Source: Minisyncoccota bacterium (lineage in GTDB: Bacteria > Patescibacteriota > Minisyncoccia > Phycocordibacterales > UBA9973). From it: a stretch of DNA of 64,000 nt. The notes beneath the pieces are model-generated. The model saw only the letters and a program-made list of their open reading frames with translations. It was not told where the DNA came from and did not search any database. Numbering within the stretch: the first letter of the stretch is position 1; each line of letters opens with the position of its first letter. The translations under genes and the position numbers were made by a program. Positions 14-21,202 of the stretch are shown here, one piece after another. The DNA is taken from NCBI GenBank assembly GCA_035714785.1, contig DASTLQ010000008.1, forward strand, positions 1,713 through 65,712, in the 5' to 3' direction.

Positions 14-1819
14 TTACTGAATATTTGCTTTCGCTCGGCTGGCTGGACCTAGAAGTCCGTCAGCTACGAGACCAGCAGATGCTTGCCATGAGACAGCGGC
101 GGACATAGTACGCTTACCGCACCATCCGTCTACCACAAGTCCTGCATTTCTCTTCACATTGAAGAATGTCTGCCATGCACGACAAGCTTCACCCCTTGTT
201 CCCATTCTTACCAAAGCATTTCCAAATGCATAACCGGAAGCTCCGGGAGCATTTACGTTTGATACAGAATTACACCTTTCTCCTGTAGTAGTATTGAACA
301 GTTGTCCTGGAGGACAAAATACCAAAGCAGTGAAGGTTGTACATCTTTCACCTGTTGAAGTACTAAACATTTGCCCTGGAGGACAAGTTACCGGGGTATT
401 GGTTACTGGGGTAGGTGTTCTTTGTCTACTTCCTCCGCTAGAAGGATTGCTGGTTGCTGGGAATGCAATTGTATAGGTAAGAGTGTTGCCTGATACATTT
501 CCTCCTGCAGTTACACCCGCACTTACTGTACCTCCTGTATTTGTCGCAGGTACTGGTATGCCAGTCGTTGGGAATTTATATCCCGCAGCAGAAGTGAGTA
601 CCACTGTCGCCGTGTATACTTGCCCCGCACCAAAAGTGGTATCAGCAGGCGACCAAGTAATGCTTGTAACTGTGTAGGTAGCAGAACCCGCAGTGAGCGC
701 ACCTAGAGTGATAGGTGATGCATTTCGTTCTGGAACCACAAAACCAGTCACGCTCGGAGTCAATTCCCTAGGAGTTGGGGTAACGGAGTCTCCAATTGTA
801 TTGCCGATCAAGGTGATTTCTTTTTGTCCCAATGCTTTACCAGTCAAGGTCGCACCGTTTTCAAATGCAATCCCCGTTGTAGCGGGACCACCTAAAATCG
901 TTCCCTTAAAAGCCGAAGTGCTTCCGAGAGTGGTAGTTCCTGCCACTGCCCAGAAGACGTTGTCTGCTGAAGCATCACCGGTCAATAGTACATCTGTAGC
1001 TGAAGCGATGCTTAGATTTCCGGAAATTTGGAATATCCATACATCGTCAGCGTCACCACTTAAAGTCAGGTCGGTAGGAATCGTGACACCTGTATTAAAT
1101 GTATACACACCTGCTGGAAGAGTCATACCTCCGAGGTTTCCTGATCCAGCATTTAGAACAGTAGTCGCTGGAACTAGAGCCGCAGTATATGCTGCCTCCA
1201 TATCACCAACCGCTGTAGTCAACATAGATGAAGTGACTCCCCCTCCACCGGATTGATCCGAAGCATAAATTCTTCCTGTAACTAAAGATGAAGTAGCAAA
1301 TGTGCCTGTGGCATCAAGAACCAATCCAAATCCAGTCACATCCGAAGCTGCTGCAGGGCTGATTCCAAGGTCTCCCGTAATTGCAGTTACTCCTGTGCTG
1401 GTAATTCCTGTCTTAGACAAGAGGACGAAATCCCCTGCTGTTCCCAAATTCACAGCCGCTGGAGAAGAAGCCACTAAGTAAGTGAAACCACCCACTAAAG
1501 TATCAGTTCCTGGGCCAGTGGTAGGATTAGTAACCACTACATCCCGCGCTCCAGCTGTGCCCGCGGGAGTCGTAGCTGTGATTGTAGTAGCATTTACCAC
1601 ATTGACAGCTGTAGCTGCAACACCACCGACTGTCACAGTCGCAGTAGCGTCATCAAAACCAGTTCCTGTAATAGTGATAGCTGTGCCCCCCGTGGTTGCA
1701 CCAAAGTTTGGAGCAATGCTAGTGACCTCGGGAGCCGCCAAAACTAAAGAAGGACTTACTACCACCATAAATGCCAGAGCACCGAGACCAAAACCCAAAC
1801 TTTTAAATATATTTTTCAT
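14..1819 (-). CDS. Secreted surface protein: N-terminal signal peptide, IPT/TIG-like domain, ice-binding-like (DUF3494) beta-solenoid region, Thr/Gly-rich linker, CPPGQ..TGERC Cys repeats, C-terminal peptidoglycan-binding-like domain
   Basis: The 601-aa ORF starts with a hydrophobic signal peptide (MKNIFKSLGFGLGALAFMVVVSPSLVLA). A TGTGF..VGG block looks like IPT/TIG. AVNLGTAGDFVLLSKTGITSTG...ITGDLGISP matches the DUF3494 ice-binding-like signature. The C-terminus (..LVVDGWCG..AVSWQASAGLVADGLLGP) resembles PG_binding_1. Confidence 0.6.
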   Translation of the reverse strand: MKNIFKSLGFGLGALAFMVVVSPSLVLAAPEVTSIAPNFGATTGGTAITITGTGFDDATATVTVGGVAATAVNVVNATTITATTPAGTAGARDVVVTNPTTGPGTDTLVGGFTYLVASSPAAVNLGTAGDFVLLSKTGITSTGVTAITGDLGISPAAASDVTGFGLVLDATGTFATSSLVTGRIYASDQSGGGGVTSSMLTTAVGDMEAAYTAALVPATTVLNAGSGNLGGMTLPAGVYTFNTGVTIPTDLTLSGDADDVWIFQISGNLSIASATDVLLTGDASADNVFWAVAGTTTLGSTSAFKGTILGGPATTGIAFENGATLTGKALGQKEITLIGNTIGDSVTPTPRELTPSVTGFVVPERNASPITLGALTAGSATYTVTSITWSPADTTFGAGQVYTATVVLTSAAGYKFPTTGIPVPATNTGGTVSAGVTAGGNVSGNTLTYTIAFPATSNPSSGGSRQRTPTPVTNTPVTCPPGQMFSTSTGERCTTFTALVFCPPGQLFNTTTGERCNSVSNVNAPGASGYAFGNALVRMGTRGEACRAWQTFFNVKRNAGLVVDGWCGKRTMSAAVSWQASAGLVADGLLGPASRAKANIQ

Positions 1820-2741: not shown

Positions 2742-2769
2742 AGGTAAATAATATCACACTCGGTTGGAA

Positions 2770-2822
2770 CTAAAAAGCCCTTACTATGCAAGGACTTTTT
2801 AGGTGAAAACTATGTATGCGCG
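2770..2822. repeat. 55-bp direct repeat, copy 2 (terminator-like hairpin downstream of tRNA-Asp)
   Basis: Same sequence as 2078-2131. The hairpin has an A-run before it and a T-run after it. Confidence 0.7.
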
Positions 2823-2893
2823 GCCGACCGGACTTGAACCGGCAACCTCGTCCGTGACAGGGACGCGATCTAACCAAATTGATCTACGGCCGC
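2819..2893 (-). tRNA. tRNA-Asp (GTC)
   Basis: The reverse complement folds as a cloverleaf: acceptor GCGGCCG/CGGCCGC, D-arm, anticodon loop CTGTCAC (GTC), T-loop GGTTCAAGTCC. Confidence 0.8.
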
Positions 2894-3036
2894 ATACTCT
2901 TATATTTTTCAAAAACCTTCCGCTTCCTGTCTAAAAACAGGCCAGAAACGTCTTTTGCCCCCTTATTATACATGAAATCGTATAATTTCAAAGAGAGTGA
3001 AATATGAACAATTTATACCGTAGTTTATGCTTTGTG

Positions 3037-3107
3037 TCGGGGGTGGGGATTGAACCCACGACCTGAGGGTTATGATTCCTCCGCTCTGCCAACTGAGCTA
3101 CCCCGAC
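3037..3107 (-). tRNA. tRNA-Met/Ile2 (CAT anticodon)
   Basis: The reverse complement is GTCGGGGTAGCTCAGTTGGCAGAGCG..ATCATAA..GGTTCAATCC..CCCCGAC. Acceptor, D, anticodon (CAT) and T arms are all identifiable. Confidence 0.75.
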
Positions 3108-3784
3108 AAAATATTCTCTTTCATTGCCCTAATTAAACCTAGCATTTTATATTTTAAGTTCTTTCCTCTTCTTACCACTAACCTACATGTACCATAGTAA
3201 TTATCATAATTAGCGTATACCTTACTAACCTTAGTATTTACATAATAAGGCTTTCTTAATTGACTATTTTGTAAGTTTAGCAGTTTTTTCCAAAAACTCA
3301 AGACCACATTTATTCGTTCTTCATGAATCCTATTAATCTGAATTGAGCACACAATTTCTTCAGAAGGTATCTGTAAAACATCCACTAAAAATAATTTCAT
3401 AATCAAAATCATTTCTGGATCTGAATTCACAAATATAAAACCCGAAGTGCTATCACTTTTTGATCCTTCGCTCCAATATAAAGCTGTAGCAATTAATAAT
3501 AATTCTTTTTTTGAAATTTTTTCAACATGCTGTTTACCCCAGTCATTAGCATTATTAATGGCATCTCGTTTTTTCTTTCTATTTGATTCTGCTCCCATCC
3601 ATCTACCCATAACACTTCCTTTTTGTTTTTTTAATTTTTCTATTTGTTCAGAACTAAGTAATATATCCCTACACCAAAGACTTACAGCACTTTTAGAAAC
3701 CTCGAGGGCTTTTGCAATTACCACAATAGACATCCCATTTGCCCTCATCTTTCGTGCTTCTATTTTCTTGTCATATTTAGCCAT
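3098..3784 (-). CDS. HTH-domain protein with possible LAGLIDADG-like homing-endonuclease fold (free-standing); the 3' end overlaps the tRNA(CAT) gene by about 10 nt
   Basis: The N-terminus carries a resolvase/IS-type HTH (ANGMSIVVIAKALEVSKSAVSLWCRD). The segment LLLIATALYWSEGSKSDSTSGFIFVNSD resembles a LAGLIDADG helix followed by beta strands. The start is probably at MAKYDKK. The assignment is weak. Confidence 0.35.
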   Translation of the reverse strand: MAKYDKKIEARKMRANGMSIVVIAKALEVSKSAVSLWCRDILLSSEQIEKLKKQKGSVMGRWMGAESNRKKKRDAINNANDWGKQHVEKISKKELLLIATALYWSEGSKSDSTSGFIFVNSDPEMILIMKLFLVDVLQIPSEEIVCSIQINRIHEERINVVLSFWKKLLNLQNSQLRKPYYVNTKVSKVYANYDNYYGTCRLVVRRGKNLKYKMLGLIRAMKENILSG

Positions 3785-3859
3785 ACATAAATGGTATAAC
3801 ACAAAATAAAGATATATAAACCTTGCAAAATCAGCAAAAATAAGCTATTATTTCTTACA

Positions 3860-4166
3860 GCGGGGTAGAGAAGTGGTATCTCACAAGGCTCAAATATGGG
3901 CCCCCCAATGAGAAATCATTGAGAGTGCATTTGCCAAATTCGGGGAAATCCTCCCTTTTCTTATGAAAAGAAAGACAATCCCGAGCTAAATCCTATATTT
4001 TTTATAGGTAAATGTGTAGAGACTAGATGGTAAACTCCTGCCTTTTAGGAAGGAGATGGTATAGTCCAGACCACAAATTTATCTTTAGCCTTTGGCTAGA
4101 GAGGAGCAGCGAAAGCTGTAGTGGTAAGCATAACCTTGAGACAGCCGTTCGAATCGGCTCCCCGCA
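3860..4166 (+). tRNA. tRNA (CAT anticodon; Met or Ile2) interrupted by a 238-nt group I intron in the anticodon loop
   Basis: The 5' exon is GCGGGGTAGAGAAGTGGTATCTCACAAGGCT and the 3' exon is CATAACCTTG..AGCCGTTCGAATCGGCTCCCCGCA. Together they give acceptor, D, anticodon (CT|CATAA) and T arms. The exon ends in U and the intron ends in G. Confidence 0.55.
3891..4128 (+). other. Group I intron (no ORF) within tRNA(CAT)
   Basis: The sequence contains an R-like element (TGTAGAGACTAGATGG) and an S-like element (GATGGTATAGTCCAGACC). The 5' splice site follows U and the intron ends in G. Confidence 0.55.
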
Positions 4167-4175
4167 ACACTAAAA

Positions 4176-4215
4176 GAAAAGCCCTTTTCCGGCGACGGAG
4201 TGGGGCTTTTCTTGT
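4176..4215 (+). terminator. Intrinsic terminator hairpin after the intron-containing tRNA
   Basis: The stem is AAAAGCCC..GGGGCTTTT with a T-run after it. Confidence 0.5.
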
Positions 4216-4277
4216 GTCTTCTTGTGCCTTTTTGCGCGCCAATTTTGTGCCTACACTTACGTGTCTTGCGCGCAAAT

Positions 4278-17062: not shown

Positions 17063-17422
17063 ACAATAATGAAATTGCGATATATATACTGTCGCTCCCG
17101 CCGTGGCGGACGCGTTATGATTTTCAAATTTCTTAACAGGAATCGAACAATTAGTACTTCTCAGCTCTACACATTACTGTGCTTACACTTAAAGCCTATC
17201 AACCTGATCATCTCTCAGGGTTCTTAACGATTCCTAATCTTGAAGCTGGCTTCCCTCTTAGATGCTTTCAGAGGTTATCCATTCCCGACATAGCTACCGA
17301 GCAATCCACTTGGCAGTAGAGCTCGTACACCAGAGGTCAGTTCACGCCGGTCCTCTCGTACTAAGCGCAAATCTTCTCAAGAATCAACGAGTGCAGTAGA
17401 TAGGAGACCAACCTGTCTCACG

Positions 17423-17748
17423 CATCTACGTCCATAATTACTTATGGGATTGGACTATAGCTTCATCTTTCTTCAGTTTTTACTTGAATAAGACTGCTGA
17501 CGTTTAGTCTCTACGGGTTCCGCCTACTGGCAGATTCCCTCGGTATTGCCCTCACTTTCGTGATCGGGTTTCACCGATACTAGTCAGCTTCACGTCACGC
17601 ATTTCTGTGTGACGCCGCCGTGATGTGCTAAAGCAAATGAATGCCATGCACGTGGTTGTTTTCGATTTATAACAGTCTAATTCGTTCTGAATTATTTTCC
17701 TCTGTAGGGTTCAGATCGTCAAAACCACAAGTTTGTCTTATGATCTCA
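17423..17748 (-). other. Group I intron (ORF-less) in 23S rRNA at the E. coli position ~2593 equivalent
   Basis: Exon junction GGGTTCAGACCGT|intron|CGTGAGACAGG. The intron follows U and ends in G. R-like (GTAGAGACTAAACG) and S-like (GAAGCTATAGTCC) elements are present. Confidence 0.65.
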
Positions 17749-18411
17749 ACGGTCTGAACCCAGCTCGCGTACCTTTTTAATTGGCGAACAGCCAAACGCT
17801 TGGGAGCTTCTCCACCCCCGCGCTAAGGTGAGCCGACATCGAGGTGCCGAACTCCGCCGTCGATATGAACTCTTAGGCGGAACTAGCCTGTTATCCCTAG
17901 AGTAGCTTTTATCCGTTAATCTAAACCCGCATCTAATGCGAAATTTCGGTTCACTTAGTTCTGGTTTCCCACCTGCTCGGGAAGTACCCCTTACAGTCAA
18001 GCCATCTTATGCCTATACACTATCGGCACGGTTTCCATTCGCGCCTAGATGACCTTTAAACCCCTCCTTTACTTTTTAGGAGGGTACAGCCCCAGTAAAA
18101 CTATCCACCAGATACTGTCTCAGTCCGTTTTTTCCGTACTGGTTAGAACATGCCTTCAAAAAGAATGGTATTTCACTGACGAGTAGATAACAGCCGAAAC
18201 CGCTAACATCAGACCTCTCCCATCTATTCTACGCAGTTTAAAAACATGCTCAATATCAAGTTATAGTAAAGCTTCTAGGGTCTTTTCGTCTAACTGCACT
18301 TAACCGGCATCTTCACCGGTATTGTATTTTCACCGAGCTGGTCCCCGAGACAGTTTCCCAGTCATTACACCATTCGTGCGCGTCGGAACTTACCCGACAA
18401 GGTATTTCGCT

Positions 18412-18625
18412 CTTCTATACCCAAGAAGGACTCTATCTTCATCCTCTCCGAAGAGGTGGGATGCTTGACGCTGGTCTCTCGTTAGCCAAGTTTTGACTGT
18501 CTCTACATTACTCTAGAGCAGGTAGCATTCGAATAGTCTAATAATTTTTTAATTTAATTGTTTACTTTTTTCTACAACAGTCCCAGTCATTCCGCGCTCG
18601 TCTGCCATAGGCAAACAAATGCAGA
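18412..18625 (-). other. Group I intron (ORF-less) in 23S rRNA at the E. coli position ~1917 equivalent
   Basis: Exon junction GGTCCTAAGGT|intron|AGCGAAATACCTTGTCGGGTAAG. The intron follows U and ends in G. R-like (TGTAGAGACAGTC) and S-like (GAAGATAGAGTCC) elements are present. Confidence 0.6.
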
Positions 18626-18660
<35 letters not shown>

Positions 18661-19394
18661 CAGGGCTTATATCAGTCTGCATATCTCCATCTTGCGACAA
18701 AGAAACACCGCCGATATTTGACCTTCTGGCATTGGTCAGGTGTCACCCCCTATACATCCTCTTACCGAGTTCGCAGGGAGCTGTGTTTTTGGTAAACAGT
18801 TGCCAGGAATACTTTCGCTGCGGCCGGCATTTCTGCCGGCAAGCCTTATCCCGAAGTTACGGCTGCTTTTTTGCCGAGTTCCTTGGGGACCTCTCACTCG
18901 TTCGTCTTGGTCTACTCGACCTGATCACCTGTGTCGGTTTGCGGTACGGATTCCATATTTTTAAGTTTAGAGATTTTTCTTGGAAGCGTGCTTTGCGAAA
19001 TTGCCCTCGGCCTAAACCGAAAACTTTTCACTTCTCTTGGATTCGCTATTTAAAGCAGCGCGCGGATTTTCCTACGCATCATCCTCAAGAAGCAAACTTA
19101 AATCCATTAATAAGCGACGCATACTACACTCCGTCCTCTCATCACAAAATATGGAAGTGCAGAAATATTAATCTGCTCTTCCATCGGGTGCGGATTTCTC
19201 CATCCCCTTAGGCCCGACTAACCCTTGGCTGATTATCATTACCAAGGAAACCTTGATCTTTCGACGTGATGCGTTCTCAGCATCATTGCGGTTACTTGTG
19301 CCAACATTCTTACTTCCACACGCTCCATAGGCCCTCACGGGTCCTACTTCACAGCAGAGTGGAACACTCTCCTACCACTCGTGAACTTCATAGA

Positions 19395-19705
19395 GGAGCC
19401 GATATTTTTTTATATCGGCTTTCAAACAATTTCGGGGTTCTCCGCAACATCAATCCACACGTTCAGAACACCATATTTAACGTATTGGAGAACCCAAAAG
19501 AACAAATCGTGCCCAGGAAGCGGGATTAAAACCCGACAAAGACCTTCGTCTTTGTATGCTTTGTTTTAACAAAAATTTTTTAAATTAGTTTTTATTTAAA
19601 CATCGCCTGATTGTTACTACTACCGGCTCAATATATCATACACGATATACCAGTACGTAACCCTCCTGGGCTGGCCACCCACCTTGGATGCGAAACTCTT
19701 CCTCT
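19395..19705 (-). other. About 310-nt insertion in 23S rRNA at the helix-45-equivalent region (IVS-like, bounded by a ~16-bp long-range stem)
   Basis: It lies between conserved CCGAA.. and GGTAGGAGAGTGTTC. The flanks GAATTTCATAGAGGA / TCCTCTATGAAGTTC can pair with each other. No group I signatures were seen. Confidence 0.4.
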
Positions 19706-20409
19706 ATGAAATTCACGAATCCTCACATTCGGTACTATGCTTAGCCCCAATTATTTTCGACGCAAAATCTCTGGATGAGTGAGCTGTTACGCTATCTTTA
19801 AAGGATGGCTGCTTCTAAGCCAACCTCCTCATTGTCAGAGAAATTTCACCTTCTTGTCTTGCACTTAGCATAGATTTAGGGACCTTATATTGAGATCCGG
19901 GCTGTTTCCCTTTTCACCAATGGAGCTTAGCCCCCACGGTGTAACTGCCGCATTCTGGCTTCTGGTATTCGGAGTTTGATAGGTTTCGCGAGATTGCTCC
20001 CTGTCGAAACCTTCCAGTGCTCTACCCCCAAAAGAAACATGCGACGCTAGCCCTAAAGCTATTTCGGAGAGAACCAGCTATTACCAGGTTCGATTAGCTT
20101 TTCACTCCTTACCACAAGTCATCCCAACGCGTTGTACGACGAACGGGTTCGGACCTCCATAAGTCTTTCGACCTACTTCATCCTGCTCATGGCAAGCTCA
20201 CCTGGCTTCGGGTCTTATGCATGATATATTTATTTCGCGCTATTAACACTCGGTTTCCCTACGGCTCTGCGGTTCTCCCGCTTAACCTACAACATGCATA
20301 AACTCGTTGGCTCATTCTTCAATAGGCACGCTGTCGCAGATATAAATACCTGCTCCAACTCCTTGTAGACATACGGTTTCAGGTCTATTTCACTGCCCTA
20401 ATCGGGCTT

Positions 20410-20446
<37 letters not shown>

Positions 20447-21202
20447 ATCTGTTAGAGTATTTAGCCTTAGCGGTTAGTTCCGCTGGATTCCCCCCGGCCA
20501 TTCGTGTCCTGGGGTACTCAAGAACGGCAATAAAAGAGATAAATTATTTTCGCTTACGGGCCTATCACCCTCTATGGAACCGCTTTCCAGCAGTTTCAGC
20601 TAATAATTTATTTTTTTACTCTTCTAGTAATCTACATTGCCGCCTTACAACCCCCAAATATTGCTACTTGGGTTTGGGCTCTTTCCTTTTCGCTCGCCGC
20701 TACTTAGGAAATAATTTTTATTCTCTTTTCCACCTGGTACTGAGATGTTTCACTTCCCAGGGTGCGCTCTCTGAATCAAGTTCAGAGTTATTGAGGTTTG
20801 CTCAATAGGGTTTCCCCATTCGGAGATCTCCGGATATATTGGTTGCTAGGCACCTCCCCGGAGCTTATCGCAGCTATGCCACGTCCTTCATCGCCTCTAA
20901 CAGTCTAGGCATCCACCGTACGCCCTTAATTTCCTGTTAAGAAATCTGAAAATCATAATTTTCATTTAGCTTTCTTTTCCGACCGCTCGGCATAAGAAAG
21001 CTGTTCTACCTACCGACATAAAGACCCCTTGGAAAGATTCATATCTTTACAAAAGAAATTGTCGTAGTAGCTTTAAGTTTTCAATCTTCAATCCGTTTCG
21101 GCAAACAAAAAACCGCCTTGTGGGCGGCTAAAAGAAAAAAACTTCTCTTTAGCGCCGCCTTTTGAGTTTCGTGTTTTTCGTTATTGTCATACTGATTGGG
21201 CT

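Follow-up and report, generated by a model that had tools for sequence, protein, structure and literature searches.

A group I intron without an open reading frame in a Candidatus Paceibacterota gene for a putative initiator tRNA

Group I introns that interrupt the tRNA genes of bacteria are known from four classical settings, termed Leu.3Ug, Arg.5Ug, fMet.2Ug and Ile2.5Ug, all of which belong to subgroup IC3 (bioRxiv 10.1101/2020.01.27.920355). The same work counted 5292 split tRNA genes, among which the metagenomic 'unnamed phyla' ranked second in frequency, after cyanobacteria. In the tRNA-fMet setting, the 655-nucleotide (nt) intron of Synechocystis sp. PCC 6803 encodes the endonuclease I-Ssp6803I, a 150-amino-acid (aa) PD-(D/E)XK protein (PMC1995217). 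Here, we analysed a 64-kb stretch of contig DASTLQ010000008.1 (hereafter the window), in which a tRNA(CAU) gene is split by a 238-nt insert. We consider it highly probable that this is the initiator tRNA-fMet gene of a Paceibacterota bacterium, interrupted between U33 and C34 by an IC3-type group I intron without an open reading frame (ORF), which corresponds to setting fMet.2Ug; the IC3 label of the window intron was taken over from bioRxiv 10.1101/2020.01.27.920355. The window was assigned to a Candidatus Paceibacterota metagenome-assembled genome (MAG) of the candidate phyla radiation (CPR, Patescibacteria), and in a homology search its GatA protein was 100% identical to a protein from such a MAG.

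Splice junction and fold of the intron

In its default mode, ARAGORN misses the interrupted gene. Its intron mode returned a cloverleaf of 72 nt interrupted by an insert of 238 nt and labelled it tRNA-Leu(CAA), as a result of the program's own convention for placing inserts. We applied the group I splice-site rule, a U before the 5' splice site and a G as last intron base, to all registers of the anticodon loop. Only one register was left, with U3890 and G4128 at the two sites and insertion between U33 and C34 (setting '2'). The predicted exon junction is CAAGGCU/CAUAACCUUG and the spliced anticodon loop would read CU/CAUAA (the slash marks the junction). Upstream of it, the 5' exon comprises A1, the acceptor 5' strand G2-G7, U8 and A9, the D arm (GAGA/AGUGGUA/UCUC), A26, the anticodon-stem 5' strand CAAGG, C32 and U33. 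The 3' exon continues with C34, A35, U36, A37 and A38, followed by CCUUG, a 4-nt variable loop (AGAC), the T arm (AGCCG/UUCGAAU/CGGCU), the acceptor 3' strand CCCCGCA with A72, and the discriminator A73. CCA is not encoded, CAC following A73 (4167-4170); locus L056, whose exons are 97% identical, does encode CCA. No ORF lies wholly within the intron, and the touching ORFs of at least 20 aa (48-59 aa) cross an exon and the terminator and are spurious.

A syntenic but uninterrupted tRNA gene was found in a relative (L242, GCA_021734995.1). It is identical to the joined exons of the window at 70 of 72 positions, including the loop CUCAUAA and the A1xA72 mismatch. Agreement of this ortholog, at 70/72 positions, with the product spliced in silico validates the splice junction without wet-lab work.

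Scanning the whole window against 4227 Rfam families, we obtained a match to RF00028 at 3881-4088 (+) that covers the full length of the model (1-253) and scores 66.4 bits (E=1.2e-14), the gathering threshold being 50. All helices from P1 to P10 (P1, P2, P3, P4, P5/5a, P6/6a, P7, P8, P9/9a/9b and P10) could be drawn on the window sequence, with 74 of 75 pairs canonical (Table 1). P7 encloses the 3' strand of P3 (4029-4034) and P8 (4035-4043/4047-4055). In addition, the core strings CAAAUUCGGGGAAA, GUGUAGAGACUAGA and AUAGUCCAG match those of the intron Aol6 and other seeds in the alignment of bioRxiv 10.1101/2020.01.27.920355. An unconstrained fold of the 309-nt precursor (z=-5.1) recovered most hairpins of the intron as well as the arms of the tRNA.

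Two scans served to collect relatives. Species-representative genomes were searched for the 17-nt core GTGTAGAGACTAGAYGG, which returned 120 loci; among these, ARAGORN typed the intron-bearing tRNAs as tRNA-Leu(UAA) in 63 cases and tRNA(CAU) in 14, along with several Arg, Phe, Thr and others. A 16-mer pattern spanning the 3' junction and exon gave 120 matches in metagenomes, mostly by chance, with about 20 true interrupted-tRNA relatives. We aligned 16 distinct junction-to-junction sequences and scored them against the hand-drawn window structure. Across these homologs, 88.7% of the cells were paired, versus 36-42% when the partners were slid by 1-3 columns. Compensatory changes occurred in 41 of the 75 pairs, and none of 500 shuffles reached the observed covariation. 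The U3890.G3899 wobble in P1, which marks the 5' splice site, was kept in all 16 relatives. P4 was paired in 99% and P5 in 100% of the cells, and P5a covaried at all six pairs. P9 was 92.5% paired; within its domain, P9b showed compensation at 4 of 5 pairs and P9a varied between lineages. The weakest helix was P10 (78.7% of cells paired). Covariation across the 16 homologs indicates that the intron fold is under selection in this lineage.

These results agree with most of the original prediction, made from the sequence alone, of a group I intron inserted into a tRNA(CAT) gene at the anticodon loop. The covariance-model and intron-aware tRNA searches it had proposed both recovered the element, at 66.4 bits and as a cloverleaf with a 238-nt insert, and P1-P10 and covariation bear it out. 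Its 238-nt insert lies exactly at 3891-4128 and is ORF-less as claimed. The predicted U before the 5' splice site and terminal G are U3890 and G4128, with CUCAUAA as spliced loop, and its R-like TGTAGAGACTAG (4015-4026) and S-like GATGGTATAGTCC (4055-4067) contain both P7 strands. The gene is where it had been placed (3860-4166), except for a shift of one base at each end (3859-4167). The element is a real and well-supported group I intron, and it is probably functional.

Identity and expression of the interrupted tRNA gene

The interrupted gene combines an A1xA72 mismatch with G2:C71, C3:G70, A73, A11:U24, G30:C40 and G31:C39. Elongator tRNAs need a paired 1:72 for EF-Tu, and A11:U24 is specific to initiators, elongators having Y11:R24. 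The determinants of Fmt are 2:71 and 3:70 together with a mismatched 1:72 (PMC5389676), and G2:C71, C3:G70 and A73 of the interrupted gene match the formylation determinants of E. coli. Judged by these hallmark positions, the interrupted gene is very probably an initiator tRNA-fMet gene. The same positions were followed through 18 distinct loci. N72 and N73 were always A, N1 was C, A or U, and A11:U24 was present in 17 loci; the remaining one, L174, reads T:A, with a numbering offset being probable (longer 5' exon). L056, with exons identical to those of the window at 70 of 72 positions, has C1xA72 and encoded CCA, and L151, L136 and L229 have classic initiator exons (CGCGGGG...CCCCGCAA).

Several points weigh against an intron-split initiator gene. 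In the anticodon stem, where initiators canonically have three G:C pairs, only two are present, with A29:U41 in the remaining place, and position 1 is A, where C is the usual initiator base. Among the Williams seeds, Sba135 is listed as 'Met.2Ug', and programs that type such CPR tRNAs may return 'Met'. P10 is short (3-4 bp), with its pairs only 79% conserved. Since only 64 kb of the genome are in view, an intron-less initiator copy may exist elsewhere. We infer from the sequence that the window tRNA is spliced and formylated and where its transcription starts. As to the anticodon stem, initiators with au/GC/GC occur in nature, and the pair that is essential is G30:C40 (PMC5389676); for this reason, the stem A29:U41/G30:C40/G31:C39 is compatible with an initiator, although it is not the canonical one with three G:C pairs.

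The second CAT tRNA of the original prediction, uninterrupted and about 750 bp away on the other strand, was recovered at a distance of 752 nt (Table 1). It has G1:C72, C11:G24 and an A31xC39 mismatch, which leaves an anticodon stem of 4 bp. In a 2026 survey, anticodon stems of 4 bp were seen in 27% of the bacterial genes for elongator tRNA-Met and were all but absent from tRNA-fMet (PMC13092985). Because its stem fits this survey, the neighbour is probably an elongator tRNA-Met rather than Ile2. BLAST searches of the spliced tRNA and of this neighbour against annotated E. coli genomes gave no match or weak ones to tRNA-Thr/Phe.

Most of the related loci (L004-L250) carry a TTGCAA-like -35 and a TATAAT-like -10 box, the latter ending 5-11 nt (mostly 5-8) before tRNA +1. 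In the window, 7 nt lie between the predicted -10 box and tRNA position 1, which is an A and thus a favourable start nucleotide. The closeness of the -10 box to tRNA +1 suggests that the 5' leader of the initiator pre-tRNA is very short or absent. Downstream, a simple terminator consensus scan missed the intrinsic terminator because of its compound stem, and RNA folding found it.

Table 1. Features of the interrupted tRNA gene, its intron and its surroundings in the window
Feature	Position	Strand	Basis and remarks
tRNA(CAU) gene, A1 to discriminator A73	3859-4167	+	split by group I intron
putative tRNA-fMet 5' exon	3859..3890	+	ARAGORN cloverleaf; single possible junction; 70/72 identity to L242
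intron, 238 nt, ends in omegaG4128	3891..4128	+	RF00028; hand-drawn P1-P10; covariation; no internal ORF
putative tRNA-fMet 3' exon	4129..4167	+	ARAGORN; junction rule; relatives' exons
P1: exon GGCU + intron C (3887-3891) with GGGCC (3898-3902), L1 loop 3892-3897	3887..3902	+	100% paired across 16 relatives
P10 guide UAU (with G3898), pairs (C)AUA of 3' exon 4129-4132	3895..3897	+	aligns 3' splice site
P2: hairpin CAAUGA/UCAUUG, GAAA tetraloop 3912-3915	3906..3921	+	compensatory change in all 6 pairs; GNRA loop conserved
P3: 5' strand UUUGCC, pairs GGUAAA 4029-4034, pseudoknot with P7	3930..3935	+	100% of cells paired; 4/6 pairs compensated
P4 (3940-3945/3979-3984) around P5 (3949-3950/3974-3975) and P5a (3955-3960/3965-3970)	3940..3984	+	hand-drawn; also in unconstrained minimum free energy fold
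P6 (GC/GU) and P6a hairpin (3992-3997/4003-4008)	3985..4015	+	P6 invariant, 100% paired; P6a covaries at 6/6 pairs
P7: guanosine-binding helix, GACUA 4021-4025 with UAGUC 4062-4066	4021..4066	+	100% paired, essentially invariant
P9 domain: P9 ACCAC/GUGGU (4070-4074/4121-4125), P9a (4082-4090/4094-4102), P9b GCAGC-GAAA-GCUGU (4106-4119)	4070..4125	+	
sigma-70-like promoter: TTGCAA (3823-3828), 17-nt spacer, TATTAT (3846-3851)	3823..3851	+	predicted; consensus scan 9/12
intrinsic terminator: compound hairpin, then U-rich tract	4174..4217	+	-29.3 kcal/mol, z=-4.29, 0/200 shuffles as stable
uninterrupted elongator-type tRNA(CAU)	3034..3107	-	ARAGORN and Rfam tRNA; 752 nt from interrupted gene
divergent ORF, 228 aa from MAKYD..., N-terminal helix-turn-helix (HTH) and alpha/beta C-terminal domain	3098..3784	-	AF2 model; weak HTH profile matches

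From the window anatomy and the established group I pathway, the following route to the mature tRNA can be proposed. The tRNA-fMet gene would be transcribed alone, from the sigma-70-like promoter to the terminator, which starts 7 nt after A73. In the precursor, P1 would form between exon GGCU and the internal guide GGCC, with U33 in the U.G wobble, and exogenous guanosine bound by P7 would attack after U3890. The guide UAUG would then pair with CAUA of the 3' exon (P10), while omegaG4128 would enter the G-binding site. Attack of the freed 3'-OH of U33 after G4128 would ligate the exons to a 71-nt tRNA with the loop CUCAUAA. Finally, the 3' trailer would be trimmed, CCA added and Met charged and presumably formylated.

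If this is the sole initiator tRNA gene, every translation initiation in a reduced CPR bacterium would depend on RNA-catalysed splicing. Such dependence is already believed to exist in some cyanobacteria, and here a known situation would reach another phylum. In addition, a CPR MAG annotated with ARAGORN in default mode would seem to be without an initiator tRNA.

The tRNA cluster and a neighbouring ORF

We compared the surroundings of gatA in relatives whose GatA identity is 70-76%. Common to them is a block composed of an M48 peptidase gene, gatC, gatA, a gene for a hypothetical protein of about 210 aa and a tRNA cluster; in L249, a Cas1 gene (2742-3767) sits between the M48 peptidase gene and gatC, the block being otherwise conserved. 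At the syntenic site, the tRNA-fMet gene is intron-less in L241, L242, L247, L248 and L249, and an intron is present in the tRNA-fMet gene of L243 (a Nomurabacteria scaffold), L056, L246 and L250. Some close relatives thus have the intron at this fixed site and others lack it, a polymorphism expected of a mobile or frequently lost element, and the site offers a natural 'before and after' pair for intron gain or loss in the CPR. Introns and endonuclease-like ORFs have a polymorphic hotspot in the fMet-Met-Asp tRNA cluster.

The tRNA-Asp(GUC) gene of this cluster has its own group I intron of about 200-240 nt in the relatives L242 (7397-8310), L247 (7586-8400), L245 (3782-4149) and L246 (3835-4141). 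Directly upstream of it, L242 and L247 carry an ORF for a double-motif LAGLIDADG endonuclease (PF14528, 31.4 bits; phrog_4645, E=1.6e-38). The tRNA-Asp gene of the window is uninterrupted, with a weak 35-aa LAGLIDADG ORF remnant (E=0.022) just upstream (2890-2994 (-)).

Between the two CAU tRNA genes of the window lies the divergent HTH ORF (Table 1). Its AF2 model (predicted local distance difference test score, pLDDT, 84.5) is made up of an alpha/beta domain, a long helix and, at the N terminus, an HTH. About 175 proteins belong to this family, every one from Patescibacteria and annotated as 'hypothetical'. Searches of Pfam (E<=10) and PHROGs gave weak HTH matches only and no nuclease motif, sequence and profile searches against the PDB found nothing, and Foldseek against the PDB and BFVD gave nothing significant, with no LAGLIDADG structure among the top PDB matches. 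The motif '...ALYWSEGSKS...' and the comparable location of the LAGLIDADG ORF in L242 had prompted the idea that the HTH ORF might be a LAGLIDADG endonuclease as well. We rejected this candidate: Pfam, PHROGs, PDB and Foldseek were negative, and hhalign against the L242 ORF returned a probability of 0.2%.

An extension of the preferred reading would be a bipartite element, in which the HTH ORF mobilises the ORF-less intron in trans as a free-standing homing endonuclease, in the manner of the 'collaborative homing' reported for a cyanophage psbA intron. We regard this addition as rather unlikely. Homologs of the ORF do lie directly upstream of the interrupted tRNA-fMet gene, divergent and at 57-109 nt where measurable, in 14 of 21 intron-bearing loci (the window and 13 others), these 21 having been found through the intron sequence alone. 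Among seven loci sampled via gatA whatever their intron state, two have both ORF and intron and five have neither (Fisher p=0.048, uncorrected for phylogeny), and in relatives a true LAGLIDADG ORF stands just upstream of the intron-bearing tRNA-Asp of the same cluster. However, neither a nuclease motif nor a nuclease fold was detected in the HTH ORF with Pfam, PHROGs, PDB, Foldseek or hhalign, and its association with the intron is not strict. The ORF accompanies an uninterrupted tRNA-fMet gene in L245 and lacks a nearby tRNA-fMet gene in L251/L252, and five loci have the intron without the ORF (L145, L153, L174, L206 and L229); these cases weaken the idea of a strict pairing. Its one constant partner is instead the elongator tRNA-Met gene, which it overlaps by 10 nt (3098-3107 (-) in the window; likewise in L243, L245, L246 and L250-L252), its TAG stop being the conserved U8-A9-G10 of the tRNA. 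The L242 LAGLIDADG ORF overlaps tRNA-Asp in like manner.

More broadly, the tRNA cluster beside gatCA in Paceibacterota might be a hotspot of ORF-less introns that are moved in trans by free-standing genes between the tRNAs, a picture to which we give little credence. In such a picture, the HTH ORF family may be a new homing endonuclease or intron helper acting on tRNA-fMet, and the LAGLIDADG enzyme may act on tRNA-Asp. A separate and likewise improbable possibility is a leaderless initiator pre-tRNA that starts at A1.

Elsewhere in the window, the 23S rRNA gene (17132-20939 (-)) measures 3808 nt versus the 2925 positions of the model. Near its 3' end lies a second group I intron (core at 17431-17640 (-), RF00028, 54.9 bits), and a further unassigned insertion amounts to about 670 nt, with no ORF of at least 90 aa on the 23S strand. 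No 16S rRNA was detected anywhere in the 64-kb window, and the 16S gene is thus not adjacent to the 23S gene. A protein of 601 aa, encoded at 14-1819 (-), combines IPT/TIG with ice-binding-like (PF11999, E=1e-58) domains.

Alternative readings and comparison with known introns

The original prediction had taken the two CAT tRNAs of the window for a lysidine-modified tRNA-Ile2(CAU) and an elongator tRNA-Met, one of which would be the interrupted gene. Introns in the 2Ug position have indeed been catalogued in Met- and Ile2-typed CAU tRNAs (seeds Sba135.Met.2Ug and Gba28.Ile2.2Ug), L095 has a 2Ug intron in an Ile2-like tRNA, and the interrupted gene is without the full 3 G:C signature in its anticodon stem. 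Yet its 1:72 position is A x A and it has A11:U24 rather than Y11:R24; its acceptor stem GCGGGG/CCCCGC with A72 and A73 is of the tRNA-fMet type, with C1xA72 in orthologs. Ile2-type loci look quite different (GGGCCC...GGACUCAUAAUCC). With initiator hallmarks in the interrupted gene and an elongator-type neighbour, the proposed pair is not supported, and assignment of the interrupted gene to either Ile2 or elongator Met appears improbable.

Even less probable is that the intron is a decayed, non-splicing relic in a pseudogene, with the functional initiator encoded elsewhere. Such a reading would suit an intron that has no endonuclease gene in a genome of which a part is in view. Against it, all core helices are intact, and the J6/7-P7, J8/7-P7 and J3/4-P4 strings match the Aol6 seed. 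The compensatory substitutions across 16 relatives point to ongoing selection on the fold, the exons are tRNA-like and 97% identical to the uninterrupted ortholog, and promoter and terminator are intact. A protein-spliced bulge-helix-bulge intron of archaeal/eukaryal type after position 35, with the anticodon CAA for 'Leu', as ARAGORN's intron mode suggests by setting the insert one register away, has a negligible chance of being correct, because U(-1) and omegaG are absent from the CAA register, the insert is a complete group I ribozyme, the host is bacterial, and the uninterrupted ortholog L242 reads CAU and not CAA, which refutes it.

We thus return to a group I intron in an initiator tRNA gene. 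Its nearest seeds were Sba135.Met.2Ug of the gpI_bact_tRNA model, the best-scoring one (78.4% identity over 204 aligned positions), and Tpc1.fMet.2Ug (77.5% over 200), both of which have the same 3' (P9) architecture as the window intron. A sibling intron from a metagenome, L151 (contig Ga0136653_10011418, 639 nt), carries a 145-aa ORF in L1, the P1 loop, that matches PDB 2OST (E=7.5e-47), a structure we take to be that of I-Ssp6803I. The I-Ssp6803I-type ORF of this sibling, the 2Ug junction and the likeness to the seeds indicate that the window intron, which has no ORF, belongs to the classical lineage of tRNA-fMet introns (fMet.2Ug), here in a CPR host, a kind already well catalogued.

With the cyanobacterial fMet.2Ug introns it shares the initiator tRNA gene, the site CU/CAUAA, U(-1) and omegaG, as well as the overall architecture and the end of the P9 domain (...GCAGCGAAAGCUGU-AG-UGGUAAG). 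It differs in its Paceibacterota host and in having no ORF in the window copy; moreover, its tRNA has A1xA72 with au/GC/GC, whereas the cyanobacterial tRNAs have C1xA72 with three G:C pairs. Sba135.Met.2Ug has the junction GGCU/CA... and the P1/P2/P9 layout in common with the window intron, but its tRNA was typed as 'Met' by tRNAscan-SE and its length is 214 nt versus 238 nt. The Ile2.5Ug seed Aol6, presumably the Azoarcus type, likewise resides in a CAU tRNA, with IC3 core strings CAAAUUCGG-GAAA, GUGUAGAGACUAGA and AUAGUCCAG identical to those of the window. Its insertion after U36 (CAU/AA), its elongator-type Ile2 host and its other P9 region set it apart, and only 54.5% of the window intron positions were matched. 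The Ile2-like tRNA(CAU) of L095 (about position 3756; GGGCCUGUAGCUCAG...GGACU/CAUAAUCC) has its group I intron at the 2Ug and not the Ile2.5Ug position, which is 'Ile2.2Ug' in the terms of the preprint. Finally, the Leu.3Ug intron of tRNA-Leu(UAA), found in cyanobacteria and plastids and in many Proteobacteria and Acidobacteria, belongs to the same IC3 family and has a similar P9b GAAA hairpin, but it resides in another tRNA and is inserted one nucleotide further 3', after U34.

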